64,000 bases of DNA from a virus, in the IMG/VR virus record IMGVR_UViG_3300023184_007611, positions 1 through 64,000 of that record, one strand, 5' to 3'. A model generated the notes under the pieces. The model was not told the DNA's origin. It saw only the letters and a program-made list of their open reading frames with translations, and did not search any database. Below are positions 14,897-64,000 of this stretch, piece after piece. Made by a program: the position numbers and the translations under genes. The first letter of the stretch is position 1. Every line of letters starts with the position of its first letter.

Positions 14897-15247
14897 TTAT
14901 CTGAAAGCGTTGTCAGATTGATTTTTACCAGTTGCAAATCTTTCTGCATCTGACATATTTTCTTTCTTTATTAAATTTTTTATTTTTATTTCAAGACCAA
15001 ATGCAAAGTCTGTATCGGAAGCTTTTATAATTTCATTTTTAACTGTATTATATTGTAATTTTTTAAAGCTTAGGTTTTTTCCAAAAGGATTTTCCATGAC
15101 TTTTATTGATTTGTAAAAAGAAATCAAAAGATCATCTGTTATTTTAGATGGAAGTGGTAACTTTTTTAAGTCATTAATGGTATCAGGATCAACTGTCATC
15201 CAGTTTTCAAATATATCTCTGTTTTCAACATAAATTTTAAATTTCAT
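14897..15247 (-). CDS. Hypothetical protein with MKFKIYVE leader
   Basis: ORF; shared N-terminal motif. Confidence 0.7.
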   Translation of the reverse strand: MKFKIYVENRDIFENWMTVDPDTINDLKKLPLPSKITDDLLISFYKSIKVMENPFGKNLSFKKLQYNTVKNEIIKASDTDFAFGLEIKIKNLIKKENMSDAERFATGKNQSDNAFR

Positions 15248-15285
15248 AATATTATTTATTGTTTATATTCAAAATAATATTAAGA

Positions 15286-15353
15286 TTCCCTTAATTAAAG
15301 AATATCCTTAGTTAAGGGAAAGCGGTTTGTGTGAACTAAGGAATGTTCTTAGT
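15286..15353. repeat. Two related inverted repeats (terminator or operator pair)
   Basis: ttcccttaattaaaga-ata-tccttagttaagggaa (15286-15320) and actaagga-atg-ttcttagt (15335-15353). Confidence 0.7.
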
Positions 15354-15374
15354 ACAGTAAAGTGTAGTAAGGAA

Positions 15375-15803
15375 TTATATTTCTTTGTCCAATATCTCTA
15401 AAGGACTATGTTCACTTAAGATTTTTCCTTGTTCATGCCTTGCTTCTTCATCTATTGGTTCTGCTTTACATATAAATTGTTTGTCTCCAACCCAAACAAG
15501 GAATTCATCATTAGAACCTTCTCTCTTTTTAATGGCTAATTGTAATTCAAGTTTTCCTTGTTTTGTATCTATATGAAGAAAATCAGAGCCTTCTTCGTAT
15601 AGAGATGAGCTATTCCAAACTTTTGCATTCCAGTTTGACCTGAAGTTCCAAGTTTCTTCTTTTAAAATTTTATTTCCATGATCTACATCTGCAAAAAATC
15701 TCTCTGAACAACAGAGTGGGCAAAAAGCGTTTTTTGGTAATTCTCCTTTAAAGTACCTATTATCTGTAAATGTAACTCCACAATCTTCGCAATCTCTTTC
15801 CAT
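15375..15803 (-). CDS. Zinc-ribbon-containing hypothetical protein
   Basis: CEDC...CPLC; AAGGAG RBS. Confidence 0.75.
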   Translation of the reverse strand: MERDCEDCGVTFTDNRYFKGELPKNAFCPLCCSERFFADVDHGNKILKEETWNFRSNWNAKVWNSSSLYEEGSDFLHIDTKQGKLELQLAIKKREGSNDEFLVWVGDKQFICKAEPIDEEARHEQGKILSEHSPLEILDKEI

Positions 15804-15815
15804 TGTAGTTCTCCT

Positions 15816-16250
15816 TTAGCTAGCTGTTAGTTGTTTGTATTCTTCTCGAATTTTTTCAAGATTTTCAATTACTTCTATACCATTCAGACCTAATTCCTTT
15901 ATTCTTTTTAAAACATATTCATCTTTTGTTGGTTCTCCTTTCATAAGAAACCTATGGGCAGTCGATTTAACCGCCCTAATTTCGATTATTATTTCATTGT
16001 TGCCATCTGCATCAAGTTTGTATTTCTTGACAATTTTGACTGGTTCTGCTTCGATTTCGCCAGTTTCGAGATTAACGAAATCACCACCTGCTTCAAGTAC
16101 TTTGTTAGTGACATCTATATCTCTTTCATCCATTCCAAATTCGTCTAAAGTCAATGGTATTCCCATTAAATCAGCCATTTTATCCATGGGTATGATGTAA
16201 TACCTGCTGCAATTGCAATTTAAAATGTTTTCTTCATCTTCTCGAATCAT
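15816..16250 (-). CDS. Hypothetical protein
   Basis: AAGGAG RBS. Confidence 0.75.
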   Translation of the reverse strand: MIREDEENILNCNCSRYYIIPMDKMADLMGIPLTLDEFGMDERDIDVTNKVLEAGGDFVNLETGEIEAEPVKIVKKYKLDADGNNEIIIEIRAVKSTAHRFLMKGEPTKDEYVLKRIKELGLNGIEVIENLEKIREEYKQLTAS

Positions 16251-16424
16251 TTTGATTCTCCTTTGGTTAAAGTTTTTCTTGCTATCATGTTATTCGTTTT
16301 AAATAGGAAAAGTTTCAATTAAAAATGAATATTTTCCCAAAATAAATTTTTATCTACTTATACGGGACAGGATATTGCCTATTTGTAGTGGAAAAATAAT
16401 TATTTTTTGATTATAATAATTTTT

Positions 16425-16497
16425 GCCCCTATAGCTCAGGAGATAGAGCAATAAATTTCTAATTTATTGGTCGCAGGTGCGAATCCTGCTAGGGGTA
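16425..16497 (+). tRNA. tRNA-Arg(UCU), CCA not encoded
   Basis: Acceptor GCCCCTA/TAGGGGT+A; D arm GCTC/GAGC; anticodon stem ATAAA/TTTAT with loop TT-TCT-AA; T arm GCAGG-TGCGAAT-CCTGC. Confidence 0.92.
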
Positions 16498-16500
16498 CTT

Positions 16501-16558
16501 GCCCCGATCATATGGCGAAATGGTCGAATTCCGTTGTTTTTCAGATATGATCGGGGTA
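16501..16558 (+). ncRNA. tRNA-like minihelix hairpin of unknown function
   Basis: 13-bp stem GCCCCGATCATAT/ATATGATCGGGGT+A, 3 nt after the tRNA. Confidence 0.45.
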
Positions 16559-16568
16559 ATTCACAGCA

Positions 16569-16597
16569 AACTACTAATTTTTTGCAAATTAGTAGTT
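16569..16597. terminator. Hairpin or terminator after the tRNA locus
   Basis: aactactaattt...aaattagtagtt inverted repeat. Confidence 0.6.
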
Positions 16598-16621
16598 CGT
16601 CATAATTCATAGGAAAAAATA

Positions 16622-17203
16622 GTGGATTTAGAAAAAACATATCAAGAAAAGTTTGGGAAAGAGACTGGTGTTAGGTCATTAGGATGGAGTAATGAACACA
16701 CTCAGAAAATAAGATTTAAGATATTGATGGAAATATCTGGATTGGAGATCACGGATAGTGTTTTGGATGTTGGTTGTGGTCATGGTGATTTGAGCTATCA
16801 TTTTGATGATTATCTTGGAATTGATTTGCGAAATTCTGCCATCATTACCGCTAAGCAAAAGTATGAGGATAAATGGAAGGGCTTGTTTCAAGGGAATTTC
16901 TTAAATCAATCTGTGTTTGAAACTGAAGGCGAATTTGATTGGTGTTTTGCATCTGGAATTTTTGCGTTTAAAGATAATTGGGAAGAAATAACACAAAATA
17001 CAATTCAGAAAATGTTTAGCTTATGCAAAAAAGGAATTGCTTTCAATTTGCTTTCTGATTCTTGTGAGAACAAAGATGTTGATATGAAACATTGTACAAC
17101 AGATGATGTTTCATTTTTGATGAAATTAATTACTGAAAAGTATGTAATAAGGAATGATTACTTACCAAATGATCTTACTGTTTACGCCTATAAGATTAAT
17201 TAA
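16622..17203 (+). CDS. Class I SAM methyltransferase
   Basis: SLGW...Q.IRF, SVLDVGCGHGDL, ASGIF; GTG start with AGGA RBS. Confidence 0.85.
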   Translation: MDLEKTYQEKFGKETGVRSLGWSNEHTQKIRFKILMEISGLEITDSVLDVGCGHGDLSYHFDDYLGIDLRNSAIITAKQKYEDKWKGLFQGNFLNQSVFETEGEFDWCFASGIFAFKDNWEEITQNTIQKMFSLCKKGIAFNLLSDSCENKDVDMKHCTTDDVSFLMKLITEKYVIRNDYLPNDLTVYAYKIN

Positions 17204-17961
17204 ATTAAAACATTTAATTTAATCAACCTTTCAATTGTTTTATTAATATTAACTGTATTTAATTTATTTACATTATTAAAATTAAACCATAAAGCATTTT
17301 TTGGATCAGTAAAATCATTTGTCATATATGGTTTTTGACCAATGTAACAATTTATTCCATTTGCTATACGCATAAAGTTAAACCAAATATCATCACCAGT
17401 TTCACAACATTCTGTGTAAATTTTTCTTTTAAAAATAATATCTTTTGTTTTATTAAAAAATTTAGGATGATACAAGACACCTGCTTTTCCAACATGGAAA
17501 TTAAATAGACTATTATTTGTTAAACTTGCTCTTATATCATAATCTATTTTATTTTCATTATTTTCCATCATTGTAAATCCTCTATAAGATATACAACAAT
17601 TTTTTTCTTTGTAATCATTAACATAATTTTCTATTAATGAAGGGTGATATTCAGTATCGTCATCTATTGTTATAATTAAACAATCTTCTTCTAATTTTTT
17701 TTTCAACAAAGGCAATAGTTTTCTATATGGACCTATGTTTTTACACCATTTGATTTTAAAAAGTTCATTTTTTTTTAAAAAAACACTTAAGTCCGCTTTG
17801 ATTATTTTGTTTTTAAAGCCTTCGTCTAAAAGATAAGGTTCTTCAGATAAATAAATTATGCATTGGCTTGGCTTTAATGTTTGTTTTTTTATGCTTTTTA
17901 ATGTTTTCAAAAGAATATTTTGATTTTGAAATATACTAGTTAAAGATATGTATATTTTCAT
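17200..17961 (-). CDS. GT-A fold (GT2-like) glycosyltransferase
   Basis: ISLTSI, IGPYRKLLP, IITIDDD, GDDIW. Confidence 0.8.
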   Translation of the reverse strand: MKIYISLTSIFQNQNILLKTLKSIKKQTLKPSQCIIYLSEEPYLLDEGFKNKIIKADLSVFLKKNELFKIKWCKNIGPYRKLLPLLKKKLEEDCLIITIDDDTEYHPSLIENYVNDYKEKNCCISYRGFTMMENNENKIDYDIRASLTNNSLFNFHVGKAGVLYHPKFFNKTKDIIFKRKIYTECCETGDDIWFNFMRIANGINCYIGQKPYMTNDFTDPKNALWFNFNNVNKLNTVNINKTIERLIKLNVLI

Positions 17962-18569
17962 AATACCTCTAAAAATCTATGTTTATATTTTTCACATTCT
18001 ACTTTAGAGAAAACATATTCTTTCACAGCTTTTTCATGTATGTAAAATTCACACAAATTATTTATATCTTGCAAATTTGTATCATCCATAATGATTACGC
18101 TTTTTGAATTGCATAAGCTTAAGCAAAAATTCAAATCTTTTTCTGCTTGTTTTACATTGTGATCTCCATCTATATGGATTATATCGAATTTTAATTTCAT
18201 TTCAATTAATTCTGGCAATGCTATTGTTGAGTTTTTTAATATAAGTTTTATATTTTTGTAATCCTTGCATATTTGCTTGTAACATGGTATTACATAAGAG
18301 TGACTATTTATGTCTATACAAGTCATGTTTATTTCTGGATCAATTATTTTCATTAGCAATGTCGAGAAACCAGCATTGAATCCTATTTCTAATATATTTT
18401 TAGGTTTAAGTAATTCTATAAGATTTACAATGTTTTTTTGCTTGTAAAACATTGCAGGTTCTTTTGTTTTTTTTAAATGACTAGAGTAAAAATTACCTTC
18501 AAGAGGATCATTAATTAAATTAAGTAAGTTTTTTTCTATGTATTCTTGCCAAGTATTTATAAAATTCAT
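17958..18569 (-). CDS. Methyltransferase (Methyltransf_24-like)
   Basis: ILEIGFNAGFS, FDIIHIDGDH, IIMDD. Confidence 0.85.
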   Translation of the reverse strand: MNFINTWQEYIEKNLLNLINDPLEGNFYSSHLKKTKEPAMFYKQKNIVNLIELLKPKNILEIGFNAGFSTLLMKIIDPEINMTCIDINSHSYVIPCYKQICKDYKNIKLILKNSTIALPELIEMKLKFDIIHIDGDHNVKQAEKDLNFCLSLCNSKSVIIMDDTNLQDINNLCEFYIHEKAVKEYVFSKVECEKYKHRFLEVL

Positions 18570-18584
18570 ATAATTTTCTTATAA

Positions 18585-18923
18585 TTAGCAGCGACATTTC
18601 CAAACCCTTAAAGCTGCATTAATTTTGCTATTTGGGTCATTAGCAGTTTCTGCTGATGTATTTTTCTTTTTGTGACCGCACATTCTGGCACAGAATGATT
18701 TTCTTCTTGCTTTTGTTTTTTTTGACATTTTATCAACGCCACCTTTTTTTTCGGCTTCACGCTTAGTTTCTATTCCTGCGTGGATACCTAATTTTTTGGC
18801 GTAGGATGGTTTGAGTCCACCTTCTGGATGGTTTTTTTCTTTGTTGAAATTTTTGAATGGTTTTTTAGTTTCATCCAACATTTCAGGATCACGATTTTGC
18901 AGCCATTCTTTAAAGTTTTGCAT
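18585..18923 (-). CDS. Basic phage protein (DUF6321-like) with MQNFKEWL leader
   Basis: GGL...RRKSFCARM...DPNSKINAALRVWKC. Confidence 0.75.
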   Translation of the reverse strand: MQNFKEWLQNRDPEMLDETKKPFKNFNKEKNHPEGGLKPSYAKKLGIHAGIETKREAEKKGGVDKMSKKTKARRKSFCARMCGHKKKNTSAETANDPNSKINAALRVWKCRC

Positions 18924-18974
18924 AATATTTATATATATTAAAACAATGTAATTTTAATACAAATAAGGTTTGAA

Positions 18975-19715: not shown

Positions 19716-19759
19716 TATTACAAGTTTTAAATAAGTATAATTTATGTTATAATAAAAAT

Positions 19760-19828
19760 ATGATTAGACATGCAAAATCAGAAGATTTTGATTACCATGG
19801 TTTGAATGCGGTTTATATGGTGAAATAA
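19760..19828 (+). pseudogene. Internally deleted 22-codon copy of GNAT gene 20996..21448
   Basis: MIRHAKSEDFD|YHGLNAVYMVK* matches both termini of the GNAT (MIRYAKPEDFD...YYGLNAVYMVKT). Confidence 0.85.
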
Positions 19829-19831
19829 TGA

Positions 19832-19867
19832 AAAAGTCTTGAATGCTAATAGACATTCAAGACTTTT
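19832..19867. terminator. Bidirectional intrinsic terminator
   Basis: aaaagtcttgaatg-N8-cattcaagactttt between convergent ORFs. Confidence 0.85.
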
Positions 19868-19876
19868 GATAATTGA

Positions 19877-20053: not shown

Positions 20054-20068
20054 TGTTTTCTCCTTGAA

Positions 20069-25855: not shown

Positions 25856-25905
25856 TTAATTTATTATAGTCAAAATTAAAATTTAATTAATTGATATATA
25901 AAATC

Positions 25906-27234
25906 ATGGAATTTAAATTATGGTTAGAATATAAAGAATCTTACGCAGAAACAGAAATTGATGTTTTCATCAAAAAAATAAAAAATATTGTTATGTCTTC
26001 TATGAATATAAAAGAAAATTATGCATCATTTTCCTTTCCTAAAAATTATGAAATTCTAATTGGATCTTTTCCAAGTAAAATGCGTCAACCTTTGTTAGCT
26101 GCCCATACTCAATATAATGGTGCCGTTATAAAAGAAGGAGAAAGAGAACCAAAAGGCAAGGGGGCGTATGAAGCTGGAGTCGAACAAGGATTAATTGTTC
26201 CTTTTGATTCACCAAAAGATGTTGATGTATTTCAAAAAGTTATTACTGATAATATTAGATTCGTAGCCAGAGACATGGGATATTTATTTGAAATAGATAC
26301 ATTCTTATATCTCCTTCAAAAGAACTTAAAAAATATATCATCTAATACTGAAGATATTAAGTTTAAAAAACAAAAATATTCTAAAAACATAGAAGGAAGA
26401 ATAAAAAACAAAATAGTTTACAATAAATTAATAGAACTAATATCTGGACATGCAGAAGATTTAGCAAGTCAAATTTACAACAGAGCAACATCAGCAGAAA
26501 TATGCAATGGTAAAATAGATCAAGTTGAATTCCTTGGTGGCGGTAGTTACGGTAGTGGAGCAAATCATGATATAGCAGATATTAAAATTGGTTGTGGCTT
26601 AGATAAAATGGGATTCTCAGTCAAATTTACTTCTGAGGCTAAAGTACCATATAGACATTTAAGTTTAATGACAACATATAAAATGCTTGGTGGTAATGAT
26701 CCTGATCAATTCGAATTCGAAGTCAAAAAAGCAGGGAAAGAAGCAGAAATTGTTATACTTCAAAATTTATATGATTTAGTAAAAAATTATAATGTAGAAG
26801 ATTTTATAAATTTATTAAACAATATATTAACATCTAACAGCTATACTTTCCCAGCAGTTAGAAATTATTTTAGAGGGGCTGGCGGTGCTCAATGGTCTGT
26901 TGGTATGCAGAGGGATTTTAATACTTCTGATACTCCTAAAACTCCTTTATCTGCCAAAGAAGGTGCTACAATTAATGTTATTGTAAACAAAACTTATGTT
27001 AAGCTTTTATATAAATTAAAAGGCGGATCTAAAAATGGCACATATATAACTTTTCATCCATATACTAGTTATAATAGTGAATCTGAAGAGCCTTTAGGTG
27101 ATAATTGGGATGTAGATCCTTGGGATGTAGATGCAAAGGCTTCAAGTAATTCATTGTCAAATTTTTCTATTGAAGTGCATGTAAATAATATAGCAACTGA
27201 TAGATTTTACAGATTTGATAAACTTAAAAAATAA
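25906..27234 (+). CDS. Hypothetical protein, possible PD-(D/E)xK nuclease, with MEFKLWLE leader
   Basis: GYLFE...ADIKI...GFSVK motif spacing; start moved to ATG 25906. Confidence 0.55.
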   Translation: MEFKLWLEYKESYAETEIDVFIKKIKNIVMSSMNIKENYASFSFPKNYEILIGSFPSKMRQPLLAAHTQYNGAVIKEGEREPKGKGAYEAGVEQGLIVPFDSPKDVDVFQKVITDNIRFVARDMGYLFEIDTFLYLLQKNLKNISSNTEDIKFKKQKYSKNIEGRIKNKIVYNKLIELISGHAEDLASQIYNRATSAEICNGKIDQVEFLGGGSYGSGANHDIADIKIGCGLDKMGFSVKFTSEAKVPYRHLSLMTTYKMLGGNDPDQFEFEVKKAGKEAEIVILQNLYDLVKNYNVEDFINLLNNILTSNSYTFPAVRNYFRGAGGAQWSVGMQRDFNTSDTPKTPLSAKEGATINVIVNKTYVKLLYKLKGGSKNGTYITFHPYTSYNSESEEPLGDNWDVDPWDVDAKASSNSLSNFSIEVHVNNIATDRFYRFDKLKK

Positions 27235-29719: not shown

Positions 29720-30676
29720 ATGTTTATTAAAAAAACCCATAAAGGATTTACATTAATAGAACTTTTAGTTGTAATTGCAATAATCGCAATTTTAATTGGA
29801 TTATTACTACCAGCAGTACAAAAAGTCCGTGAGGCTGCTGCCAAAATGCAATGTGCAAATAATTTAAAACAAATTGGACTTGCTATTCATTCTTATGTTT
29901 CAGCAAACAATGAAACTTTTCCAACTAGTACAAGGCCAGGCGGAGTTACAACATCACCAAGAATAAGCTGGGCAGTTGCAGTTTTACCATTTTTAGAACA
30001 AGACAATTTAGTTAAAACTTATGATTTTAAAACAAATTGGAGTTCTGCAACTAATTTACCAATTACAAAACAAGCAATTAAAATATTTCAATGCCCTGTA
30101 GCTCCTGATTCATCAAGGCTTGATGGTGATCCTCAAAATGGAACATGGGATATTGTTGCTACAACAGATTATGCAGCAATTACAGGAGTAAGTCCAATTG
30201 CTACAAATGTAAATACTTCAGGATTTGCAATACCTGGAATTATGGAAAAGAACAAAACAGTAAAAATATCATCTGTAATGGATGGTCTATCTAACACATT
30301 AGCTATTGTAGAATCTTCTGGTCGCCCTTTTTTATATAGAAAAGGTGTTAAAATTGGATCTGTTCCAGCAGTCAAAGTAAATGGTGGAGGTTGGTGTAGA
30401 CCTGCATCAGATTTAGACTTCATATCTTCTGATGCTACTGGAGCAACTTATCCTGGCAGTTGTGCTGTTAATTGTACAAATGGTTTTGATTATACATCTT
30501 ATAATATGGTTCCATTCGGAACTGAAGGTACTGGTCAACCTTATTCATTTCATACTAATGCTATAAATGCATTAATGGGAGATGGATCTGCAAGGACAAT
30601 TAATAGCAATATATTAATTAATATATTTGCTGCATTAGTTACAAGGGCAAATGGCGAAGTTATTGGTGATTTTTAA
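29720..30676 (+). CDS. DUF1559 Planctomycete-type prepilin-like protein
   Basis: KG|FTLIELLVVIAIIAILIGLLLPAVQKVREAA..C.NNLKQIGLA; C-terminal H-X9-DG (HTNAINALMGDG). Confidence 0.95.
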   Translation: MFIKKTHKGFTLIELLVVIAIIAILIGLLLPAVQKVREAAAKMQCANNLKQIGLAIHSYVSANNETFPTSTRPGGVTTSPRISWAVAVLPFLEQDNLVKTYDFKTNWSSATNLPITKQAIKIFQCPVAPDSSRLDGDPQNGTWDIVATTDYAAITGVSPIATNVNTSGFAIPGIMEKNKTVKISSVMDGLSNTLAIVESSGRPFLYRKGVKIGSVPAVKVNGGGWCRPASDLDFISSDATGATYPGSCAVNCTNGFDYTSYNMVPFGTEGTGQPYSFHTNAINALMGDGSARTINSNILINIFAALVTRANGEVIGDF

Positions 30677-32744: not shown

Positions 32745-32993
32745 ATGGATAATATAAATTTCAAGGATTGGTTGATAATGAAAGAAAATAAAAGAAAATT
32801 AATAAATTTAGATAAGACACCTAAAGCTCCAAAAGGTAAAAATGTAATTATTAAATTGGGAAAAGTTCAACCTGATACATTATTTAGTGATAGGGGACAT
32901 ATACATATAAAAAACGGTGGGGCACATGAAAAAACCCATACTAGAGGCGAAGAAAAGATAAAATGGAATAAAGATCAAGACTATTTAAAGTAA
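32745..32993 (+). CDS. Small basic protein with INFKDWL leader
   Basis: AAGG RBS; TATAAATA at 32701. Confidence 0.65.
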   Translation: MDNINFKDWLIMKENKRKLINLDKTPKAPKGKNVIIKLGKVQPDTLFSDRGHIHIKNGGAHEKTHTRGEEKIKWNKDQDYLK

Positions 32994-51259: not shown

Positions 51260-51538
51260 ATGAAATCATTTAATTCATGGATGCATAAAAAAGAAAAAAA
51301 ATACAACTTTGATGATGTACTCAGATTGGCTAAATTAGCTAATGTAGATAAAAAAGAACTAAATAAATATGAAGAAAAACAATTAATTGATGGTATTAAT
51401 TCAGAAAAAGAACATGCAATCGGTAAATTTAATGTAATTGGTAAAAACGAAGAAAAAATACTTAAAATTGCTTTAGCTCACCTTGAAGAAGATAAAGAAT
51501 ATTATTCTAAGCTTAAAAATTGCGTAGAAAAGAAATGA
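51260..51538 (+). CDS. DUF5661-like protein with MKSFNSWM leader
   Basis: GINSEKEH...KIALAHLEEDKEYYSKL. Confidence 0.75.
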   Translation: MKSFNSWMHKKEKKYNFDDVLRLAKLANVDKKELNKYEEKQLIDGINSEKEHAIGKFNVIGKNEEKILKIALAHLEEDKEYYSKLKNCVEKK

Positions 51539-52915: not shown

Positions 52916-53596
52916 ATGAAAAGTTTTGAAATTTATTTAATTGAACAAGATTTAATTCAAACCATCGGCATCTCAAGAAAACAATTGTATTGTGAAAGTT
53001 TATTAAAAGAAAATTTTCAAGTAAATGAATTTCTAAGTTTATTGCCATCTATGCTTGGTTTACTCGGATCAAGCAAACCTAAAGATGTTGAAAGTGAAGT
53101 AAAACAAAAAGATAAAAAATCATTTGTTATAGAATTTTTAAAAAGTGCTGTTAAAAAATTGGGATTGTTAGTTGTTATTGGTGCATTACTTTACTTAGGT
53201 GTAAAAACTGGAATAATAGCACAGTTATTAGGCTGGGCTGGGACTATAATTAAAAATATAGTTATGTGGATACTTTCTTTTGCTGGGGATAAAATTAAAG
53301 CAATGCTAGAAAAAGCTTATGTAGAATTCAATGGTTTTGTAGTTGATACTGCATCACAAATTAATGATAAAACTGGAGAAGCTGGAGAATATCTAAAAGA
53401 TCTATTCAAAAAAGGCACTGGAACATTTGGAAATCCAGATGTTGGTAATGCTTGGAAGAATCCACAAGAAACAGATTTTCTAGGAAGAGGCAGAACTATT
53501 TTAACTCCAAAAGAAGATCCCAAGCCAATAGATTGGGATGGAATAAATGATTTCTTTAGAGATAAAAAATTAATTGATCCAGGTTTGTTAAAATAA
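52916..53596 (+). CDS. Membrane-associated protein with MKSFEIYLIE leader
   Basis: Hydrophobic LGLLVVIGALLYLGV; paralog of 58133..58600. Confidence 0.75.
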   Translation: MKSFEIYLIEQDLIQTIGISRKQLYCESLLKENFQVNEFLSLLPSMLGLLGSSKPKDVESEVKQKDKKSFVIEFLKSAVKKLGLLVVIGALLYLGVKTGIIAQLLGWAGTIIKNIVMWILSFAGDKIKAMLEKAYVEFNGFVVDTASQINDKTGEAGEYLKDLFKKGTGTFGNPDVGNAWKNPQETDFLGRGRTILTPKEDPKPIDWDGINDFFRDKKLIDPGLLK

Positions 53597-53736: not shown

Positions 53737-54123
53737 ATGAAATTTAAACTTTGGTTTGAAGCTGTCAATCAAAATGTATATGATTTTATAAATTATTTTA
53801 ATAGACTTGGAAATCCCAATCCTTTAAGCGATGAAGCACATTATATAATAGACAATAGAACTTTAATAAAATACACATTAACTACATCTATAGAACCAAA
53901 TACAGTTTACTTTGATTCTCTTATTGTAATACCACAGAAAACAGGTGCTGGTACTAATTTCATGAATAAGATAATACAAAAGGCAGATGAGTTAAAAGTT
54001 AATATTTCTTTACATGCAATACCATTGCCAACAAAAGATGAATTAAGTAAAGCAAATTTGTATAAATTCTACAGAAAATTTGGTTTCAAAGGAACTGAAT
54101 ATATGACTAGAAAACACAATTAA
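53737..54123 (+). CDS. GNAT-like acetyltransferase with MKFKLWFE leader
   Basis: QKTGAGT.FM, ISLHA, LYKFYRKFGF. Confidence 0.72.
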   Translation: MKFKLWFEAVNQNVYDFINYFNRLGNPNPLSDEAHYIIDNRTLIKYTLTTSIEPNTVYFDSLIVIPQKTGAGTNFMNKIIQKADELKVNISLHAIPLPTKDELSKANLYKFYRKFGFKGTEYMTRKHN

Positions 54124-54513: not shown

Positions 54514-54900
54514 ATGAGTTATTCACCTACTAATAATCAATCTTGGCTAGACCCTTCTGGAAATTTTCATCCTATTGATAGGAAAGATTCTGGAGATGGT
54601 TTTTTAACGCACGAACAATGGGCTAAAAATAAGGGATATAAATTAAAAGGATTATATAAAAAGGGATGGCTTAGAATTAAAAAATATGGTGATACATTGT
54701 GGGCGAGTAACGCTGAGAAAGTACCACCTAATTACAAACAAGAAAGAGAATTACAGAACTGGGCTAGTGAAAATCCAGTTTTTAAAAAAATTTCTTTTGA
54801 TAATGGAGAAAAAGAAATAATTATTTGGTCTAGATTATCAGAATATTACGAAGTAAATTTCAAAGAATGGTTTGATTCTAAAGAAAAAATAATTAATTAA
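54514..54900 (+). CDS. Hypothetical phage protein (WLDPSG..H..W..GWLR type)
   Basis: ORF, start uncertain (54451, 54499 or 54514); ends VNFKEWFDSKE. Confidence 0.65.
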   Translation: MSYSPTNNQSWLDPSGNFHPIDRKDSGDGFLTHEQWAKNKGYKLKGLYKKGWLRIKKYGDTLWASNAEKVPPNYKQERELQNWASENPVFKKISFDNGEKEIIIWSRLSEYYEVNFKEWFDSKEKIIN

Positions 54901-57245
54901 ATCTTATAATCCCTTGCTTCTCTTGTAGAATCTCCTCTGTATGCTTTATCAATCTGTTCTGGAGATGCTTGTTGCTGTTGCTGTTGTTCTGGGAATATAG
55001 ATTTATAACCTTCTTCTCCAACTTTATCTTTTATTAAATCTCTTGTAGTTCTTGGTATCTTTTCGTTTCCAATTGTATCTACAATAAATTTGATAGTTGA
55101 AATTGCATCATTATCTATTTTTTCAAAAGACCACTTTAATATTTTTGCAAATAAATTTATACTAGTATTTTCATGATTTTGACTTATATCAGAATGATGA
55201 GTATCTTTTTCATAACGATCAATATCTCTGGCATCGTCTAATTTTGAAGCAAAATTCTGAAAGAATCTTCTGAACATAACAATGTATTTAGAACTACCAC
55301 CAAGATAGCCTCTCATCTTTTGAATTAGATCTGGTATGCTATTAATTGGCATTTTATTTGAATAGCTGCTTAAAACATGCAATAAATTTATAATTTTAAC
55401 TTTGTCATCGTGAAATTGATAAAATTTGCTCTTCATACTATCATGGTTACTTAATATATCATCTATTAAAACTTGACATTTTGAACTTGATCTTAAAAAA
55501 TCAGTCAAAAATTTAACATTGTTTTTGTTTTTCTGTTTTAAAATTTCAGATATAAAATCAGAATTTTTACAAGTAATTAAATTTTTTATTTCATCCGTAA
55601 ATTCTAAGCTTGGATTTTCTTCATATTTTCTAAAAAAACTATAAGAAGTTGATATGACATCTTTAAAATAACCTTTAAATAATGTTTTGAATTCTGCTTT
55701 CTTATCTTCTGGAAGATTAAGATAATCATCTAACTTTATATAATTATATTTATCGTGATTACTATTATTTGGTGATATAAATCTAGTACCATCACCTTTA
55801 AACAAGGTTTTAATTTCTGTTTTTTTATCTTCTGGGAAATTTAAATAATCTTCAAGTTTTATTGAATTGCTTAACATTAAATTTGAAACATCATTTTTAA
55901 ACAAGGTTTTAATTTCTGTTTTTTTATCTTCTGGAAGATTTAAATAATCTTCAATTTTCATATTGCCATGTGATATATAATCTTTAATTTTATCGCCATA
56001 TTTTTCTGCCAACTCTTGTTTGTATTTTGGTGGCATGGCTAAATATTCTTGTGCTCCTAGCTGTTTATTTGGTAGGCCATTCATTCTTGCGTTAAGATAA
56101 TTTAATTTTAAATCTTTAAAATAAGGATTGTTAAGAACAAGGTTCAATTGCTTACCATGCAAAATTATACCAAGTGATACATGTATTTTTAAAAGTGGCT
56201 CAGATCTAGTTGTAACTAGAAAATTGAATTGTTCATCTGAAAGGGCGTGTCCTCTACTAAGATAATTCTTTCTTTCTTCATATGTTAAAGATTTGAACCA
56301 TTCTAAGTCAAGATTGCTGTTACCTAATTTTTCATGTTCTGATTCTTCTTTTGGTGTTTTTGGTTCATTTTTAAAGACAGTGGTATCAACGCCTTTTTCT
56401 TTTAAATATTTAAAATATAAATCTGGGTCTGATGTTATTCTTTTTGGTGTAGTTTCATATGGATCTTGCATGAAACCATTTGTTTGATTTTGTCCATCAG
56501 TAATTTCAATACCGTTTCTCGTAGCATCAACTACAACGACTTTAAGATCATCCCCAAGATTTCTTGTATTATCATAAACAAAGTAGAAAGTTGAATCTTT
56601 GGTATTCCTGTAACCATGAAATTGTGAATTGCCAGGTTGAGATATGCAAAACCTTTGGCCTCTACCAAGAATAATACACTTGTCAACTGCGTTAGCTTTA
56701 TAAACCTTTATCTTTTCATCTGGTGATTTTGCAATTAATTCTTGATCGCTTACATCCCCTGTGGTTTTTTGTAAGGTTTGGTGGAATTTCTTTTTTTCTT
56801 CATCTTCATTTTCGCTATTTTTAGAATGTACAGCAGATGCCCAATCAATATAATTTGAATATGGATTTCCTGTATCTTTGGGTTTCCCTATAATATAGTT
56901 CCCAGTTACAACTCCATTATCATCAAATGATAAAATAGGAAGTTGGTTTGCTATTACAAATTTATAATAGTCTTTTAAATCTTGAGAGAATTCTCCTTCG
57001 CCAACTGATGGGTTTGTTTTGTACACATAAGCTGCTGTTGGATAAATGTTTTTTTGTTGTGCTTCAGGAATGCCAGAAGCGGTAAATATCTTATTGAATT
57101 CATTTGTTGTTTTTATAATATTAGGATCAGTACTAAGAACAGGCTTGCCAGCATTATCAACTGTATTACCAAGTATTTTAAAAGCCAAAGCCTTTGGTTT
57201 TAATTCTTCTAATATTAATAGCCATTCTTGAAAATTAAAGTTCAT
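54897..57245 (-). CDS. Large protein with MNFNFQEWL leader, PcfJ-like segment and three internal 20-aa repeats
   Basis: KCIILG...FCIS...FYFVYD; DYLN(L/F)PEDKK(T/A)E(I/F)KTLFK x3. Confidence 0.7.
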   Translation of the reverse strand: MNFNFQEWLLILEELKPKALAFKILGNTVDNAGKPVLSTDPNIIKTTNEFNKIFTASGIPEAQQKNIYPTAAYVYKTNPSVGEGEFSQDLKDYYKFVIANQLPILSFDDNGVVTGNYIIGKPKDTGNPYSNYIDWASAVHSKNSENEDEEKKKFHQTLQKTTGDVSDQELIAKSPDEKIKVYKANAVDKCIILGRGQRFCISQPGNSQFHGYRNTKDSTFYFVYDNTRNLGDDLKVVVVDATRNGIEITDGQNQTNGFMQDPYETTPKRITSDPDLYFKYLKEKGVDTTVFKNEPKTPKEESEHEKLGNSNLDLEWFKSLTYEERKNYLSRGHALSDEQFNFLVTTRSEPLLKIHVSLGIILHGKQLNLVLNNPYFKDLKLNYLNARMNGLPNKQLGAQEYLAMPPKYKQELAEKYGDKIKDYISHGNMKIEDYLNLPEDKKTEIKTLFKNDVSNLMLSNSIKLEDYLNFPEDKKTEIKTLFKGDGTRFISPNNSNHDKYNYIKLDDYLNLPEDKKAEFKTLFKGYFKDVISTSYSFFRKYEENPSLEFTDEIKNLITCKNSDFISEILKQKNKNNVKFLTDFLRSSSKCQVLIDDILSNHDSMKSKFYQFHDDKVKIINLLHVLSSYSNKMPINSIPDLIQKMRGYLGGSSKYIVMFRRFFQNFASKLDDARDIDRYEKDTHHSDISQNHENTSINLFAKILKWSFEKIDNDAISTIKFIVDTIGNEKIPRTTRDLIKDKVGEEGYKSIFPEQQQQQQASPEQIDKAYRGDSTREARDYKI

Positions 57246-57949
57246 AAATTATATAGTGTTTTATAATAAAATGTATCTTCAAAAACAGGCAAATTAATAT
57301 ATTCGATTGCGGTTTTATAAAATTTATTATAAATTTCCATGTATAGAATAAATCTATCTTTTAAAGATTTCAAATGCCACTTATAATATTCATTATTTAA
57401 ATAAATTAATTCTACTTGGTCAAGGCAGTAATTTAAATTTTTATTGTTTGTTAATATTATTAATTTAAACCAATTGTTAGTTTTTTCTTTTATTAAATTA
57501 ATCATTTCTAATACTTTTATATCAACATTAGTGAATGTAATGAATATAATTTTGTTTTTTAATTCCAAACATTCTTTAAAATTTTTTATTTTAGTGTTGA
57601 AGCTATCAACTATAAATTCATAATTTATAATTTTATAGTCTTGCAAAGCATAGTCATGGTTAAATTTAAAATTATACTTTTTATTAACTAAATTTTCTTC
57701 GTCAGGCAAATAATTATATTCTTTTAGATAACTATGAAATTCAATTATTTTAATGCCATTGAAAAATAAATTTGATTTACTGTATATTTCTTCATAGTTT
57801 GATTCTTTTAAATATTCTAGTATATCATTAAAATTAAAAACCCCAAGTTGAAATAATTGCTTGTCTTTAATATTAAGAATATCATTGATTATGATGCCAG
57901 ATGCACAATCATTTCCAAAATGAACTAATCTTGTTTTTTTATCAATCAT
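57242..57949 (-). CDS. Hypothetical protein, possibly DUF1796 papain-like
   Basis: N-terminal HFGNDC and later FNHDY. Confidence 0.45.
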   Translation of the reverse strand: MIDKKTRLVHFGNDCASGIIINDILNIKDKQLFQLGVFNFNDILEYLKESNYEEIYSKSNLFFNGIKIIEFHSYLKEYNYLPDEENLVNKKYNFKFNHDYALQDYKIINYEFIVDSFNTKIKNFKECLELKNKIIFITFTNVDIKVLEMINLIKEKTNNWFKLIILTNNKNLNYCLDQVELIYLNNEYYKWHLKSLKDRFILYMEIYNKFYKTAIEYINLPVFEDTFYYKTLYNL

Positions 57950-57966: not shown

Positions 57967-58146
57967 ATGGAAGAAATGATTGATTGTTATGAGTGTTCAT
58001 TTTGTAAATTAAAATTCAATTGTAATAGTTATTGGAAAGGCCAAGGAAATCCAAATAAATGCCCTGAATGTAACTGTGAACAATTAATTTATAAATATTG
58101 TGCAATAATATATTTAAATTCTAGGACTCCTAATGAAAACATTTGA
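57967..58146 (+). CDS. 59-aa zinc-ribbon protein (not in ORF track)
   Basis: YECSFC...KCPEC. Confidence 0.6.
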   Translation: MEEMIDCYECSFCKLKFNCNSYWKGQGNPNKCPECNCEQLIYKYCAIIYLNSRTPNENI

Positions 58147-58600
58147 AATTTACATGATTGAAGAAGATTTTTTAAGAACATATAATTTAAAAAGAAATGA
58201 ACTTTTTTTAGAAATTTTTGGGTTTTTTGATATAGCACCATCACAAGGACCAGCATATTCAAGAGAATTCGCAAGCAGGAAAAATACAAACCCAAGGAAG
58301 GTATTCATTTCTGATGATGATACCTTGTTTGATAAATTTATTCAAAGTGCAATGAAAAAAATAGGAACACTTGCGGTTGCTGGTGCTTTGCTTTTTCTTA
58401 AGTTTTCATATAAATCAATTTATCACATTCTTAGATTTGCTGGAAAAATATTGATAAAAATATTAAAATATTTAGGTGCAATAAGTGCAAATGTATTAAA
58501 CAATTTATATATTTCACTTAAAGATTATCTTAAAAAAAGCAACGATTTTACAGTTGAAGAAAAACAAAAAATAGAAGAAAAATTAAATAAAAATAAATAA
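58133..58600 (+). CDS. Paralog of 52916..53596 with MKTFEIYMIE leader
   Basis: FIQSAMKKIGTLAVAGALLFL versus FLKSAVKKLGLLVVIGALLYL. Confidence 0.75.
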   Translation: MKTFEIYMIEEDFLRTYNLKRNELFLEIFGFFDIAPSQGPAYSREFASRKNTNPRKVFISDDDTLFDKFIQSAMKKIGTLAVAGALLFLKFSYKSIYHILRFAGKILIKILKYLGAISANVLNNLYISLKDYLKKSNDFTVEEKQKIEEKLNKNK

Positions 58601-58616
58601 CTTAAAAGATATTAAT

Positions 58617-59273: not shown

Positions 59274-59279
59274 ATTTAA

Positions 59280-60485
59280 TTACATAGCAATTATTTCTTT
59301 TCTGAAAGTTGAAAAAGTAGGAAATTGTATCCATTCCCCTTTGAAAAACTGCTCTTTTCCTAATAAATGATACATTATGACTATTGTTGAAAAATCATTA
59401 TTAAATAAGTAAGAATTATTTTCGTACTTATCATAAAATGATCTTAATATATTTTTAAAGTTTTTCCAAGAATCATCGCTGCAAATATCTTTAAATTCTA
59501 TTCTATCACTTAATATCTTATTCTTTAATGAAAACTCTGGTGTGCCTTGAAACCCAGCTAATAATGAACTCTTGCATATTATCTTTTTTCCAACTACCTC
59601 AAATGGAAAATAAAAATATCTCATTAATATTTTATCATACCTCTGATTTTTTAAAAGAGGAAATTCAAAAGACTTTAAAGCATTGCTTTTAATCTTATTA
59701 TCTATTTCATATGTTAATGGCATGTAACAACATAAAAGATGTTGATTACCACTAAATCCACAAAAATCAAAATGTGTATGCGAAAAAAATTCAGATAATG
59801 CATCCATCTTTATGTGATCTAACTCAGCATTTAGAAAACTTAAATTAAAACTCTTTATTTCCTTTTCTGAAAATATCCTTTCTGAAATCCTATCTAAAGA
59901 ATGTTTTGTTAAATAAATCTCATATTTATCTCCTTCTGCATTTATCTCTTTTAAATGCTTAAACAAAGTTCCATTTTCCGTTTTTAAAGATTCAATCTTT
60001 AAAAACTTAATATAAACTTGGTTGTTTAAAAAGCCTAATGTAAAAAAATAATAAGGAAAAAAATTCTTAAAGTTGCTATTCTTCAGCAAGTAACTAGTAA
60101 TACATGATGTTGTTAATTGCAACATAGCAAACAAGAATTTCCTAGTGTCAAATTTATAATCAGCTTTAAATTCTATTAATAATTTTTGAATAACTTGTTT
60201 CTCTAAGATTTTAATTGTTGTGTGACTACTAGGGCCGAAATTAGGATCAAAGTTACTTAATCTTATGATTTTTAAAAATTCATAAACTACCTTCTCATGG
60301 CTAGTTTTATCCTTTTTTTCACTTAACTCAACGAGCATTTTTCTATATGTTTTTTTAAAAACAACAGCTATGTTTAGGGGTGCTTTATCTTCTGAAAATA
60401 ATTCTAAAGAACAAAATTTATTGAAAAAATCCTTCTCCAATAAATCTTTTTTTAATTTCTGTTTCCTTTTCATCTCTTTTGACAT
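59280..60485 (-). CDS. Hypothetical protein
   Basis: Start moved to ATG 60485 with AAGGAG RBS. Confidence 0.65.
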   Translation of the reverse strand: MSKEMKRKQKLKKDLLEKDFFNKFCSLELFSEDKAPLNIAVVFKKTYRKMLVELSEKKDKTSHEKVVYEFLKIIRLSNFDPNFGPSSHTTIKILEKQVIQKLLIEFKADYKFDTRKFLFAMLQLTTSCITSYLLKNSNFKNFFPYYFFTLGFLNNQVYIKFLKIESLKTENGTLFKHLKEINAEGDKYEIYLTKHSLDRISERIFSEKEIKSFNLSFLNAELDHIKMDALSEFFSHTHFDFCGFSGNQHLLCCYMPLTYEIDNKIKSNALKSFEFPLLKNQRYDKILMRYFYFPFEVVGKKIICKSSLLAGFQGTPEFSLKNKILSDRIEFKDICSDDSWKNFKNILRSFYDKYENNSYLFNNDFSTIVIMYHLLGKEQFFKGEWIQFPTFSTFRKEIIAM

Positions 60486-60692
60486 GGCAAACTCCTTTAC
60501 CAAAGTAATATTTATTATTATTATGATTGTGCATGACAAAGACAAGATTTAAATTTTTTTTTTAAGTATATAATTTAAATATTAACTTAATCCAAGGGAT
60601 ATATTTAAAATTAATCTTCAATTAATTTTACTTAATATTTAATTGAAACATAAAATTTAAAAATTAGATATATTTTTTATTTTTTCTAAATT

Positions 60693-61401
60693 CTAAAATT
60701 TTTCTAAATCTGCATATTGATAGTTTTCAAAACTAAAATTAAAAAGTTCTATGTCTTTTGCATGTATTTTCTCTACTAATTCTATTGTTTTGTCATCATA
60801 GTAAGTTTTGAAAAATTCATGCTTTTCTTCGTGTATATTTTTTTGATCTTTTTCTTTTACTTTGTTTAAATCTTCTGTTCTGTTACTTATTTTTTTTATT
60901 AATTCAAAATCATTGTTTAAATTGTGTAAATTGATTATATAATCAACTCCAATTTTATCATTTAGATTTATATAATTATAATAGCTATTATTTTTAATTA
61001 ATTTTTCTAGATCACTTTCCTCATATAGATGCAAAATCCAATCTTTAAAAGTATATTTCTTTTCTATAATTCCAATCCAATACTTAATTCCTTCTGGATT
61101 TATTGGGTTTTTCATAGTTAAGATCTGTTTTCTTGTTCTATAATTAAATTCTGAAAGAATTCTCTCCCAAGGATTTCTAAATATTACAAACTTAAAATAA
61201 TCCTCAAAAGGAATAGATTGATATATCTTTTTCTTATCATAAAATTCTCTTTTTATATCTGCTAACATGCGATGGCCAGTTTTTTTACCTGTGATCAGGA
61301 ATATCTGAATAACCAAAATAGGTTTTTACTGTTCCTCCACCTGTCTTTGGTATATGTACAAATAACAATGGTGTTTTATTTTTTCTTGGATTTTGTATCA
61401 T
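60693..61401 (-). pseudogene. Sulfotransferase family 2 gene split by a frameshift
   Basis: 61401-61285 encodes FVHIPKTGG then TAA; the rest (FRNPWERILS...DIELF) is in the +1 frame. Confidence 0.8.
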
Positions 61402-61517
61402 TAAAAAATTTCCTTTTTATTAACACATAAATTTTTTGTTAACATGTAATTTATATACAGTCAATAAATAAAAAATTTTACTACAGTAATACATAATAAA
61501 AAAGGAGATTTGCTAAC

Positions 61518-62342
61518 ATGAGGAAAATATTTAAAAATCTATCTGGTGAAGGTTCATCTACGCCACCGCCTGCGACAACATCAGAGCCAACTACAACTGC
61601 TTCACCTACGACAACATTAGAGCCAACTACAACTGCTTCACCTACGACAACATTAGAGCCTACTACAACACCACCTACTACAACACCACCTACTACAACT
61701 GCTTCACCTACGACAAAACCTCCTACTACTACTAAAAAACCTACAACAACTACAACAACTACTACTCCAAATTGTGTTGCTGACCTTAAAACATATAAGT
61801 CGTATTGTTCGCAAGAAACTACAGACTTAGCAAGTAAAAAAGATAAAATAGCTTCACGCAAAACTAAATTATCAGATAAAAAAACTAAAGAAGGCGAATT
61901 GAAAACAGCACAACAAAATTATAAAGAAAATGTAAGTGCCTACAAAAAAGCTTTAGCAGCCAGAAACAAAGATATTGAAAACATTGCTGCACAAAAAAAA
62001 ATAATTGCAGCAAAAACTAAAATAATTAATGATCCAAACTCAACTAAAAAAGCTAAAAATGATGCAATAATAGCAAAGAAAAATGCTATTGCTGCAAATG
62101 TAAAAAACCAAGCAAGTTATGATAAACATACAGCAACATATGAAAAAGCATTTAAAGATGCAAGTTTTTATGATAAATTGAAAAATTCTTTGGAAAGTTC
62201 AATTGCAAGTCTAACAAAACAAATTAATGCTTTAGATAAACAAATACAAGCCCTAACTGATAGCTTATCAGCACTTAATCAATCTAAGTCAGATTTAAGA
62301 AATACTATGGTTGATAGAGGATGCAATGAGCCTTCTTGCTAA
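61518..62342 (+). CDS. Mucin-like Thr/Pro linker plus Cys-bracketed Lys/Ala-rich coiled coil
   Basis: EPTTTASPTTT repeats, TTTKKPTTT, PNC...C...GCNEPSC; AAGGAG RBS. Confidence 0.82.
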   Translation: MRKIFKNLSGEGSSTPPPATTSEPTTTASPTTTLEPTTTASPTTTLEPTTTPPTTTPPTTTASPTTKPPTTTKKPTTTTTTTTPNCVADLKTYKSYCSQETTDLASKKDKIASRKTKLSDKKTKEGELKTAQQNYKENVSAYKKALAARNKDIENIAAQKKIIAAKTKIINDPNSTKKAKNDAIIAKKNAIAANVKNQASYDKHTATYEKAFKDASFYDKLKNSLESSIASLTKQINALDKQIQALTDSLSALNQSKSDLRNTMVDRGCNEPSC

Positions 62343-62382
62343 TAAATGATCATCATAAGCAATAAAATATATAAATAAATCT

Positions 62383-64000
62383 ATGGACTTTAAAAAATGG
62401 TTATTATTAATTGAAACAGATGTTAAGAACTGGGAAAATGAAATAAAATCTTCTTCTTACAGTAGATCTTTTGCATTTGAAAATTGGTTTCCTACAGAAG
62501 GCAGAGTTTATATTCCATTTGAATCAGAAGAATCAGAAGATTCAAAAATTGATAAAGATATAGAAAACTATTTTAAAGACCATGAAAAGTATGAAATATT
62601 AGATTATCCTAAAGGATTAGCTGCTGATAAAATTTCAAAAAGACCAATGAAAATTGGAAAAATATTAGAAATGGAAGCTAAAAAAGAAGAAAATAAAATA
62701 AAATCATCTTATGAAAACAAACAAATTTCAGATATTAAATATCAAGACGAATTAAAATGGCATAAAGAATACTACAAAGGCCTTTTATCTACATTCACTT
62801 CGTCTAAGTATAGAGTTGGAGTTAAATCTACATCACCATATATGATAGTCTTCAGTAGCATTCCTGAAGATATTGCTGCAATGTCTACTAATCGTAATTG
62901 GACATCATGTATGAATCTTCAAGGTGGAGCAAACAGAGAAAGCGTATTTTGTGAAATAAAAAATGGTGGATTTATAGCTTATCTTTGTCTTAAAGATGAT
63001 AAAAATATTGAAAAACCATTAGCAAGAGTGCTTATCCGTAGATTTGATAATAAAGCAGGTAAATCAATAGCAGTATTAGAAGAAAGTGTTTATGGAAATT
63101 CTTTAGATGGATTCGAACAACAAGTTCAAAAATGGATTGATTCAAAACAAGGTAAAATAAAACCAGCTAAATATATTCGCAAAGGTGGCTGGCATTCAGA
63201 TACATTTGGAACTGCTGACCCTGATGATAGTGTTCAACGACAACGCAGAGATATGACAAAAATATTTTATCCCAAAACAGCTGATGGTCTGTTTAAAATG
63301 CTAGAGAAAAAAAGAGAACCAGAAGTCACAAGAGACATATTACAAAAGTTACTTGATCCAAATTTAGTACTTGATGAAGAAAACAAAACTAAACTTATTA
63401 ATTTAATAAACTCTGAATGGACTATCAATACTTTTGTATACAATCTTTACGCTGCTGATTTCAAAAGAAAATTATTTTTAAAATATCCTGAACTTTTAAA
63501 TAACCAAGAATTTTCTAATTTAAGAACTTATGATCGAGAAAAATTAGCTAGAAATAATCCAAAATTTAAAGAACTTCAAAAAGATTTAGCAATTAATGCA
63601 ATATTATCTTTTGACCCAAGCAATCCATCTTTAAAAATACACAATCCTGAATATGGTAGACCAGAAGCTTACAGTCAAATTACTGATATTGTTTTAGATT
63701 TTTCTGGTACAGGCAAATTAACAGAACCTTTAATTCGTAAATTAGTTGAAATTTCAGAATACTTTTTAAAAATATATGAAGCTGAAAAAGATAAAAGTTG
63801 GGGAGGGCCATTTGGAATCATCAAACATATCCTTGGTTTTTTAAGCAATGGAGATGCAGATACACCTACTGTCATAAAATTTTACAGTCGTTTATTACCA
63901 TATTTTAACGATGATTTATTTATGGATGGATTAGGAACTGCATTGGCTCGATTAGGAGAAAATGGCAGACAATTTTTGCCATTTTTACAACAAAAATTAC
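62383..64000 (+). CDS. Large protein with MDFKKWLLLIE leader (partial; not in ORF track)
   Basis: Frame appears open from ATG 62383 to the window end; AMSTNRNWTSCM, FIAYL, PLARV motifs. Confidence 0.85.
   Translation, partial: MDFKKWLLLIETDVKNWENEIKSSSYSRSFAFENWFPTEGRVYIPFESEESEDSKIDKDIENYFKDHEKYEILDYPKGLAADKISKRPMKIGKILEMEAKKEENKIKSSYENKQISDIKYQDELKWHKEYYKGLLSTFTSSKYRVGVKSTSPYMIVFSSIPEDIAAMSTNRNWTSCMNLQGGANRESVFCEIKNGGFIAYLCLKDDKNIEKPLARVLIRRFDNKAGKSIAVLEESVYGNSLDGFEQQVQKWIDSKQGKIKPAKYIRKGGWHSDTFGTADPDDSVQRQRRDMTKIFYPKTADGLFKMLEKKREPEVTRDILQKLLDPNLVLDEENKTKLINLINSEWTINTFVYNLYAADFKRKLFLKYPELLNNQEFSNLRTYDREKLARNNPKFKELQKDLAINAILSFDPSNPSLKIHNPEYGRPEAYSQITDIVLDFSGTGKLTEPLIRKLVEISEYFLKIYEAEKDKSWGGPFGIIKHILGFLSNGDADTPTVIKFYSRLLPYFNDDLFMDGLGTALARLGENGRQFLPFLQQKL

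Follow-up and report, generated by a model that had tools for sequence, protein, structure and literature searches.

In 1996 Mullaney and Black reportedly described a capsid-targeting sequence (CTS) on the internal proteins IPII and IPIII (and IPI) of phage T4, which the gp21 prohead protease removes, as it does the short propeptides of Alt and gp24. This leader is about 10 residues long and is the sole conserved part of diverse internal proteins. It is removed by a single gp21 cut and is sufficient for packaging foreign proteins (PMC9958956, PMC3012670, PMC5694885); staphylococcal nuclease was packaged in T4 through it (PMC3012670). The leader of IPII and IPIII is quoted as the CTS in bioRxiv 10.1101/2021.01.19.427310. 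Described here is a short N-terminal tag carried by ten predicted proteins in a window of 64 kb, the first part of IMG/VR virus record IMGVR_UViG_3300023184_007611 (single contig, 101,045 bp, 30% GC). The tag is probably a much-expanded T4-type capsid-targeting propeptide, by which proteins would be loaded into the prohead and which would then be clipped.

As in T4, the tag is a leader of about 10 residues on unrelated proteins, of the form M-(K)-x-aromatic-x-x-aromatic-aliphatic-x-E, mostly ending hydrophobic-x-Glu. T4 and the tag-bearing clade are also alike in gp21, gp23 and gp20 homologs, in small basic tagged proteins and in diverse, fast-changing cargo. They differ in scale (17 of 128 open reading frames (ORFs) on the contig versus 5 broad matches among 261 ORFs in T4), in consensus (F-K-x-W-L-L..E versus Y-Q-E-F-I-A-E) and in the position of Glu (residues 8–14 versus a fixed residue 10). 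Cargo here, unlike that of T4, includes proteins of 340–780 aa with repeat, Zn-ribbon/nuclease-like and GNAT domains. The genes are scattered over both strands, each with its own upstream box, and are known from sequence alone.

In phiKZ-like giant phages (proteases phiKZ gp175 and SPN3US gp245) propeptides of ejection and inner-body proteins are mostly longer than 100 residues and are cut at A/S/G-x-E (PMC5694885, PMC7411985). These phages resemble the reading proposed here in that they package many proteins along with their DNA and have a T4-related prohead protease that cleaves after Glu. Their propeptides are long and are not a common short tag, whereas the present tag is short, is common to its proteins and has the T4-like ending. 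A phiKZ-type long propeptide was rejected: conservation ends after about 12 residues, and P3 (two before the first acidic residue) is hydrophobic, not A/S/G.

Occurrence and enrichment of the tag

The strict motif is M, 1–4 residues, F-x-x-[WY]-[LMVFI], then E/D within 6 residues. ORFs were called on the whole contig (n=128), and 17 of the N-termini fit. As the number expected, shuffled N-termini give a mean of 0.38 (at most 3 in any of 2000 shuffles) and a model of genome composition gives 0.22; internal Met positions fit once in 440. A broader motif fits 23 of 872 ATGs, taken in six frames with at least 30 codons downstream. Seventeen of the 23 are called gene starts (17/128 gene starts versus 6/744 other ATGs). 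The original prediction had named ten tagged ORFs in the window, and their coordinates, strands and starts are all exactly as claimed; the N-terminal enrichment that it presupposed is borne out by the 17 tagged starts against 0.2–0.4 expected. Seven additional tagged genes lie beyond the window, one at 83623 and six consecutive ones in tandem at 68897–77246, the leaders of which are nearly identical. The ten in the window are as follows.

14897..15247, minus strand: tagged ORF, 116 aa, pI 9.0; the leader is the first 8 residues and ends Y-V-E; no family match.
18585..18923, minus strand: tagged ORF, 112 aa, pI 10.0; leader of about 12 residues; DUF6321-like domain from residue 33.
25906..27234, plus strand: tagged ORF, 442 aa, no assigned function; leader of 8–11 residues; orthologs 43–45% identical.
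32745..32993, plus strand: tagged ORF, 82 aa, pI 9.8; leader offset 4 residues from Met, ending M-K-E at residue 14.
51260..51538, plus strand: tagged ORF, 92 aa, pI 9.1; DUF5661 domain from residue 23.
52916..53596, plus strand: tagged ORF, 226 aa; 10-residue leader M-K-S-F-x-x-Y-L-I-E; distant paralog of 58133.
53737..54123, plus strand: tagged ORF, 128 aa, mini-GNAT acetyltransferase.
54897..57245, minus strand: tagged ORF, 782 aa, virus-only helical-repeat protein; 42% identical paralog of tagged 73232.
58133..58600, plus strand: tagged ORF, 155 aa, pI 9.5; 10-residue leader.
62383..64000, plus strand: tagged ORF, 572 aa, running to 64101; leader of 11 residues, ending L-I-E; no family match.

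The consensus is M, then 1–4 residues, F-K-x-[WYF]-[LI], with the first Glu at residue 8–12. A profile was built from 171 unique tags. F occupies the anchor in 94%, and K the next position in 51%. Three residues past the anchor W, Y and F occur in 59, 22 and 19%, followed by L in 66%. Trp, at 59% in this second aromatic position, has an overall frequency of 1.5%. The first acidic residue is at positions 8–12 in 157 of the 171 tags.

Modularity and distribution of the tag

The tag is a peptide-level add-on to otherwise unrelated proteins. The tagged proteins make up at least 13 unrelated families. When the first 16 residues are removed, similarity is left in only three pairs contig-wide; the one pair in the window is 52916/58133 (27% identity), in agreement with the earlier statement that the tagged ORFs are unrelated apart from one paralog pair. 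It had also been stated that recognisable enzymes lack the tag, and this holds for GT2, GT11, sulfotransferase, FkbM methyltransferase, epimerase and ThyA; also untagged are HNH endonucleases, RCC1 proteins, a 2OG oxygenase and an AAA ATPase.

The DUF5661 and DUF6321 domains start downstream of the tag (Pfam). In the DUF4379 Zn-ribbon/nuclease-like family the leader is present on the 18 closest homologs, all metagenomic and 41–90% identical; the other 102 homologs listed begin straight in the domain without a tag, and the only organism-named ones (Butyrivibrio, Peribacillus) are among these 102. On the contig itself, untagged 81165 shares a C-terminal domain with tagged 68897 and 70320.

The leader is also better kept than the proteins behind it. 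The orthologs of 25906 have the same first eight residues except position 2; one of them is in a 436-kb, 48%-GC record (G010), where more tagged genes adjoin it. The product of 74948 and its tagged homolog in G001 are 32% identical overall and share 9 of 11 residues in the tag. At the conserved positions of 175 distinct tag DNAs, Leu is encoded by all six of its codons and Phe, Lys and Glu by both of theirs, and codon usage is near background save for a moderate preference for AAC, CTA, AAA and ACA.

The tag is virus-specific. A degenerate DNA pattern for its commonest form gave 31 matches in 19 viral contigs of 8.7–511 kb, all 31 at ORF starts and mostly behind an ATAAATA-like box. In 27 loci retrieved around matches, 86 of 323 ORFs are tagged. 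Tag-bearing viral contigs range from AT-rich to 48% GC and reach 511 kb. Prokaryote genomes (596 Gb) gave only 6 matches, four of them clearly due to chance. The other two start ORFs of 43 and 33 aa, one in a contig (63% GC) of a Gemmatales metagenome-assembled genome (MAG) and one in a Cohnella genome; the Cohnella match sits behind an ATAAATA-like box. Among the 878 ORFs of record G001, a relative of 511 kb with terminal repeats and 100% completeness, 19 carry strict and 35 broad tags, with 1.3 and 4.5 expected.

Head genes of tag-bearing relatives

Searches of the contig (PHROGs for 20 large ORFs; Peptidase_S77 for the whole contig) detected no gene for a capsid, portal, terminase, tail or protease. 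Head genes are presumably missing because the contig is a fragment, of about 30% completeness by CheckV; as it is a fragment with accessory genes, their absence is uninformative in either direction. The contig is an accessory-gene piece of a far larger tailed phage, and the source appears to be an uncultivated giant T4-like phage. Only 10 of the 128 contig proteins are held in common with G001; contig genes are 42–60% identical to genes on several protease-bearing contigs. The T4-like head-assembly genes for which the original prediction looked to the rest of the contig are thus not there; they are present in tag-bearing relatives, in the form of an S77 protease, a gp23-type capsid gene and a T4-type portal gene.

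Peptidase_S77, the family of T4 gp21, is well over the Pfam cut-off in G001, G003, G004 and G006. The G001 protease, encoded at 164128–164814, is 30% identical to T4 gp21 (read from NC_000866). Invariant are H85 and S140, which we take to be the catalytic His and Ser of the prohead protease. By tblastn it matched 2504 phage records; the matches listed are T4-type phages of enterobacteria, cyanobacteria and others, headed by a 595-kb uncultured phage and by Flavobacterium phage immuto (43% identity). Near the protease gene is a capsid gene of the gp23 type, matched by Pfam Gp23 and with a product 29% identical to T4 gp23 (E 6e-39). Genes for a large terminase and for a T4-type (gp20-type) portal also adjoin the protease gene in the relatives; a presumed scaffold gene beside it is assigned by position only. 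All relatives with a gp23-type capsid gene of normal strength have the gp21-type protease, gp23-type capsid and gp20-type portal together.

A profile of the clade protease found 191 relatives in viral contigs, and 80 loci were analysed with up to 10 kb on each side. These loci hold 65 strict tags in 1175 ORFs, with 2.5 expected. The order of the head module is portal, 80-aa gene, 104–112-aa gene on the opposite strand, 612-aa gene, protease, scaffold, capsid protein. The 104–112-aa gene has a fixed place 2.3 kb from the protease and is tagged in 20 of 20 cases, with leaders of the form M-K-T-F-x-x-[YF]-[IMV]-E, which is nearly the T4 CTS. A nearby 72-aa family is tagged in 11 of 11. The capsid protein of the clade has a conserved [FY]-L-N-E-A at residues 7–11 in 70 of the 80 loci; its N-terminus shares its ending with the tags and is similar to the 10-residue propeptide of T4 gp24.

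Likeness of single leaders to those of T4

Leaders of T4 were read from its genome (NC_000866). IPII and IPIII start with the published CTS; the leaders of gp24 and Alt are hydrophobic-x-x-hydrophobic-hydrophobic-x-E, the same shape as the tag. In T4 as a control the five ORFs fitting the broad motif compare with 1.4 expected, and only IPII and IPIII among them are known cargo. One leader in G001 has 6 identical and 3 conservative residues of 10 relative to the T4 CTS. In the window, the leaders of 52916 and 58133 follow the T4 decapeptide position by position; that of 58133 has 4 identical and 3 conservative residues relative to IPII/IPIII.

P3 is hydrophobic in 146 of 171 tags, a figure partly forced by the search pattern; where the pattern leaves P3 free it is hydrophobic in 28 of 48, against a background of 39%, which is a modest signal.

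As a separate observation, T4 gene 61.1 (54 aa, uncharacterised; NC_000866 18966–19130, minus strand, L159) has a very CTS-like leader.

Proposed function and points against it

A T4-style packaging tag, that is, a protease-clipped leader on a set of cargo proteins, had been proposed for this stretch, and on comparative evidence it is the best-supported reading. Tagged genes would be expressed late. The short, amphipathic leader would dock the protein on the scaffolding core during prohead assembly, and the gp21-type (Peptidase_S77) prohead protease would cut after Glu. The mature proteins would then remain beside the DNA inside the head and be delivered to the host on infection. We infer docking, cleavage, head retention and injection by analogy with T4. 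Among the candidate cargo are small basic proteins, Zn-ribbon/nuclease-like proteins, repeat proteins of the ankyrin type and a mini-GNAT resembling AcrVA5.

Several points weigh against this. The link to a head protease runs through relatives only, as genes for protease, capsid, portal and terminase are all absent from the contig. Tag-bearing G002 (381 kb, 79% complete) has no detected S77 protease, and its terminase gene lies 4.4 kb from the contig end, so that the remaining head genes may have been lost by truncation. Tag-bearing G010 (436 kb, 85% complete) has no detectable S77 protease or terminase. At G010:C1:52688–55988 (L172:8688–11988) two ORFs lie among replication genes, one of 369 aa that is gp23-like but short and divergent and one of 256 aa that contains a portal-like fragment; both matches are weak. 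It is plausible that the protease is missing from G002 and G010 through incompleteness, and the main head module of G010 may be unassembled or highly diverged. Phage immuto, which is cultured and T4-like, has the 43%-identical protease and no tag enrichment; the protease alone is therefore no predictor of the tag. No cultured relative with the tag was found, and one tagged protein was unmatched in 50,697 phage records. Several leaders end in an acidic residue with a non-hydrophobic P3, e.g. K-K-E and N-R-D. Some tagged proteins are large, up to 782 aa. Nuclease-like cargo beside the phage's own DNA needs explaining, despite the precedent of staphylococcal nuclease in T4.

The alternative that survives best is a leader for some other destination or partner, such as an inactivating propeptide, another late assembly or a chaperone, the proteins acting in the producing cell and not being injected. 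A shared, modular, conserved N-terminal peptide carries no information on the final location of a protein, much of the cargo is large or enzyme-like, and immuto has the protease without the tag. We nevertheless hold this alternative to be unlikely: the leader closely resembles the one peptide known for capsid targeting, small proteins inside the head modules are invariably tagged, the capsid protein N-terminus has the same ending, and no gene for another partner was found to occur together with the tag.

Upstream DNA and remaining alternatives

A second alternative, distinctly improbable in our estimate, is that the conserved element is DNA or RNA, a portable promoter and start cassette for late mRNAs that lack a Shine-Dalgarno sequence (SD) and are possibly leaderless. 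The DNA before the tagged genes is indeed peculiar. An SD precedes 3 of 17 tagged and 55 of 111 untagged genes. A TATA(A/T)A- or ATAAATA-type box ending 3–6 nt before the ATG precedes 11 of 17 tagged and 20 of 111 untagged genes. The box regions in the window are listed below; the box is also found upstream of the six tandem genes (L001).

15248–15270: box region before the minus-strand ORF starting at 15247.
18924–18945: box region before the minus-strand ORF starting at 18923.
25880–25905: box region before the plus-strand ORF starting at 25906.
57246–57270: box region before the minus-strand ORF starting at 57245.
62355–62382: box region before the plus-strand ORF starting at 62383.

With T4 late-promoter spacing the transcript start would fall at or next to the ATG, and leaderless late mRNAs are possible. 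The unrelated genes 68897 and 73232 share 33 identical nucleotides from the ATG, synonymous sites included (68897–68929 and 73232–73264; L001:6897–6929 and 11232–11264), which suggests recombination or gene conversion between tags. The bias towards AAC, CTA, AAA and ACA also speaks for conservation of nucleotides. Against it, every synonymous codon occurs at conserved residues, the conservative swaps W/Y/F and L/I/M require multiple base changes, the distance between ATG and motif varies by 1–4 codons, the tag is retained in a 48%-GC genome, and members of the head module have an ordinary SD and a distant box. A cassette might spread the tag, yet it leaves the conservation of the peptide unexplained.

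Upstream of the capsid and protease genes no TATA-type box was found in the 80 loci, and ordinary SDs are present there; the label "late promoter" is therefore unproven for the box.

Less probable still is a recognition leader of a modifying enzyme (radical-SAM/SPASM; similar to ribosomally synthesized and post-translationally modified peptides, RiPPs): Radical_SAM (PF04055) is absent from the contig, from complete G001 and from G003, G004 and G006, whereas 14 of 14 control genomes were positive, and a radical-SAM-linked leader was rejected on this ground. A Sec or Tat signal peptide was rejected as well, since the tags have 8–14 residues, at most 3–4 consecutive hydrophobic residues and a Glu ending, and 16 of the 17 proteins have no hydrophobic segment. 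Chance or composition, by which AT-rich codons (K, N, F, I) at gene starts would imitate the motif in a 30%-GC genome where K/N/F-rich starts are frequent, has a practically negligible probability and is refuted by the excess over shuffles and composition models, the six-frame ATG count, the high frequency of Trp at the second aromatic position and the retention of the motif in orthologs and higher-GC genomes.

In G001, the conserved motif TTAGTTATCCATA shows strong enrichment in the 30 nt before start codons, at about 58 genes (loci L035–L060); it is probably a promoter of another temporal class.

A possible cassette, and significance

T4-type phages show modular gene shuffling at conserved junction sequences (PeSL cassettes). 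Similarly, stop-to-start junctions before the tandem genes are conserved here, and identical tag DNA stands before unrelated genes; PeSL junctions differ in that here the shared sequence reaches into the coding region and encodes the tag. Conserved junctions and identical tag DNA could serve as recombination sites that move cargo genes. The spread of a promoter-plus-tag cassette by recombination is plausible and compatible with a capsid-targeting tag. A tentative extension, which we rate as somewhat doubtful, is that the tag and the abutting TATA-type box together form a portable "express late and load into head" cassette. Placed by recombination, with transcripts that are perhaps leaderless, it would give phages of 350–500 kb a large, rapidly reshuffled set of ready-made injected effectors, including nuclease-like proteins and an AcrVA5-like acetyltransferase. 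If so, the injected arsenal of uncultivated giant phages would be readable directly from sequence.

If the tag acts as the T4 CTS does, the proteins packed and injected by uncultivated giant phages could be listed from sequence alone. Such effectors of the first minute are difficult to identify and frequently prove to be anti-defence factors. Cargo would account for about 13% of the genes of this fragment, far above the handful in T4. Targeting and clipping of the T4 kind would be conserved across a very wide branch of T4-type phages, and the natural variants of the tag would be available for loading foreign proteins into phage heads.

No published description of the tag was found; the tag strings are absent from the literature searched, and the phrase "capsid targeting" from the top-ranked jumbo- and huge-phage papers in it. 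As far as we could find, the divergent consensus, the scale, the large enzyme-like cargo and the spread over uncultivated 350–530-kb phages are new relative to print. Because the principle of the T4 CTS dates from 1996, what is added here lies in breadth and scale and not in mechanism.

Tagged proteins and candidate cargo

The tagged proteins below 130 aa number five and are all basic, pI 9.0–10.0. The product of 53737 has the Q-x-x-G-x-G motif, and its homologs are named GNAT by JGI. Fold searches with its AlphaFold model (pLDDT 77) gave GNATs almost exclusively. In the PDB, the anti-CRISPR acetyltransferase AcrVA5 (6iuf) ranks first in sequence and fold comparison alike; this match is weak (sequence E 0.03; Foldseek E 1e-3, TM 0.41/0.52), and the remaining matches are ordinary GNATs. 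The GNAT listed among the cargo by the original prediction is supported by motif, homolog names and fold. Of the two DUF proteins in the same list, DUF5661 is over the Pfam cut-off, and DUF6321 was confirmed but lies just under it. The "membrane proteins" listed there were not recovered as a group: only 52916, 1 of the 17 tagged proteins, has a hydrophobic segment. Nor was the putative nuclease recognised in the window; the nuclease-like tagged proteins are 68897 and 70320, both outside it, which have Zn-ribbon repeats and a weak nuclease-like C-terminus.

Also outside the window, 73232 has ankyrin repeats. Protein-atlas neighbours of its 782-aa paralog (54897..57245) are virus-only helical-repeat proteins and nothing else. 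A PHROGs search of the tagged proteins in the window gave no additional assignments. An ART-like label for 76221 and a kinase-like label for 83623 were rejected, being unsupported by Pfam and by PDB sequence searches.

Other features of the contig

Half of the untagged genes on the contig have an SD of the AAGGAG type. A giant eukaryotic virus was rejected as the source: no capsid of nucleocytoplasmic large DNA viruses was found in four relatives (a search without positive control), and T4-type head genes and SD sequences indicate a tailed phage.

At contig positions 1–110 the first 50 bases are repeated 60 bases on, and the first 20 are repeated at offset 30; the repeat is a short tandem repeat within an open frame that runs off the start. 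At 85590–88856 of this contig (G000; L002:8590–11856) there are four to five paralogous genes of about 180 aa with near-identical N-termini, interleaved with two copies of an approximately 80-aa gene; the whole array is untagged.

The Gemmatales (Planctomycete) MAG contig, JBBSDR010000737.1 (63% GC), has an ORF start with the full tag at 4462–4494 (L162). Together with a DUF1559 prepilin gene in the window (29720–30676), it gives a faint hint as to the host.

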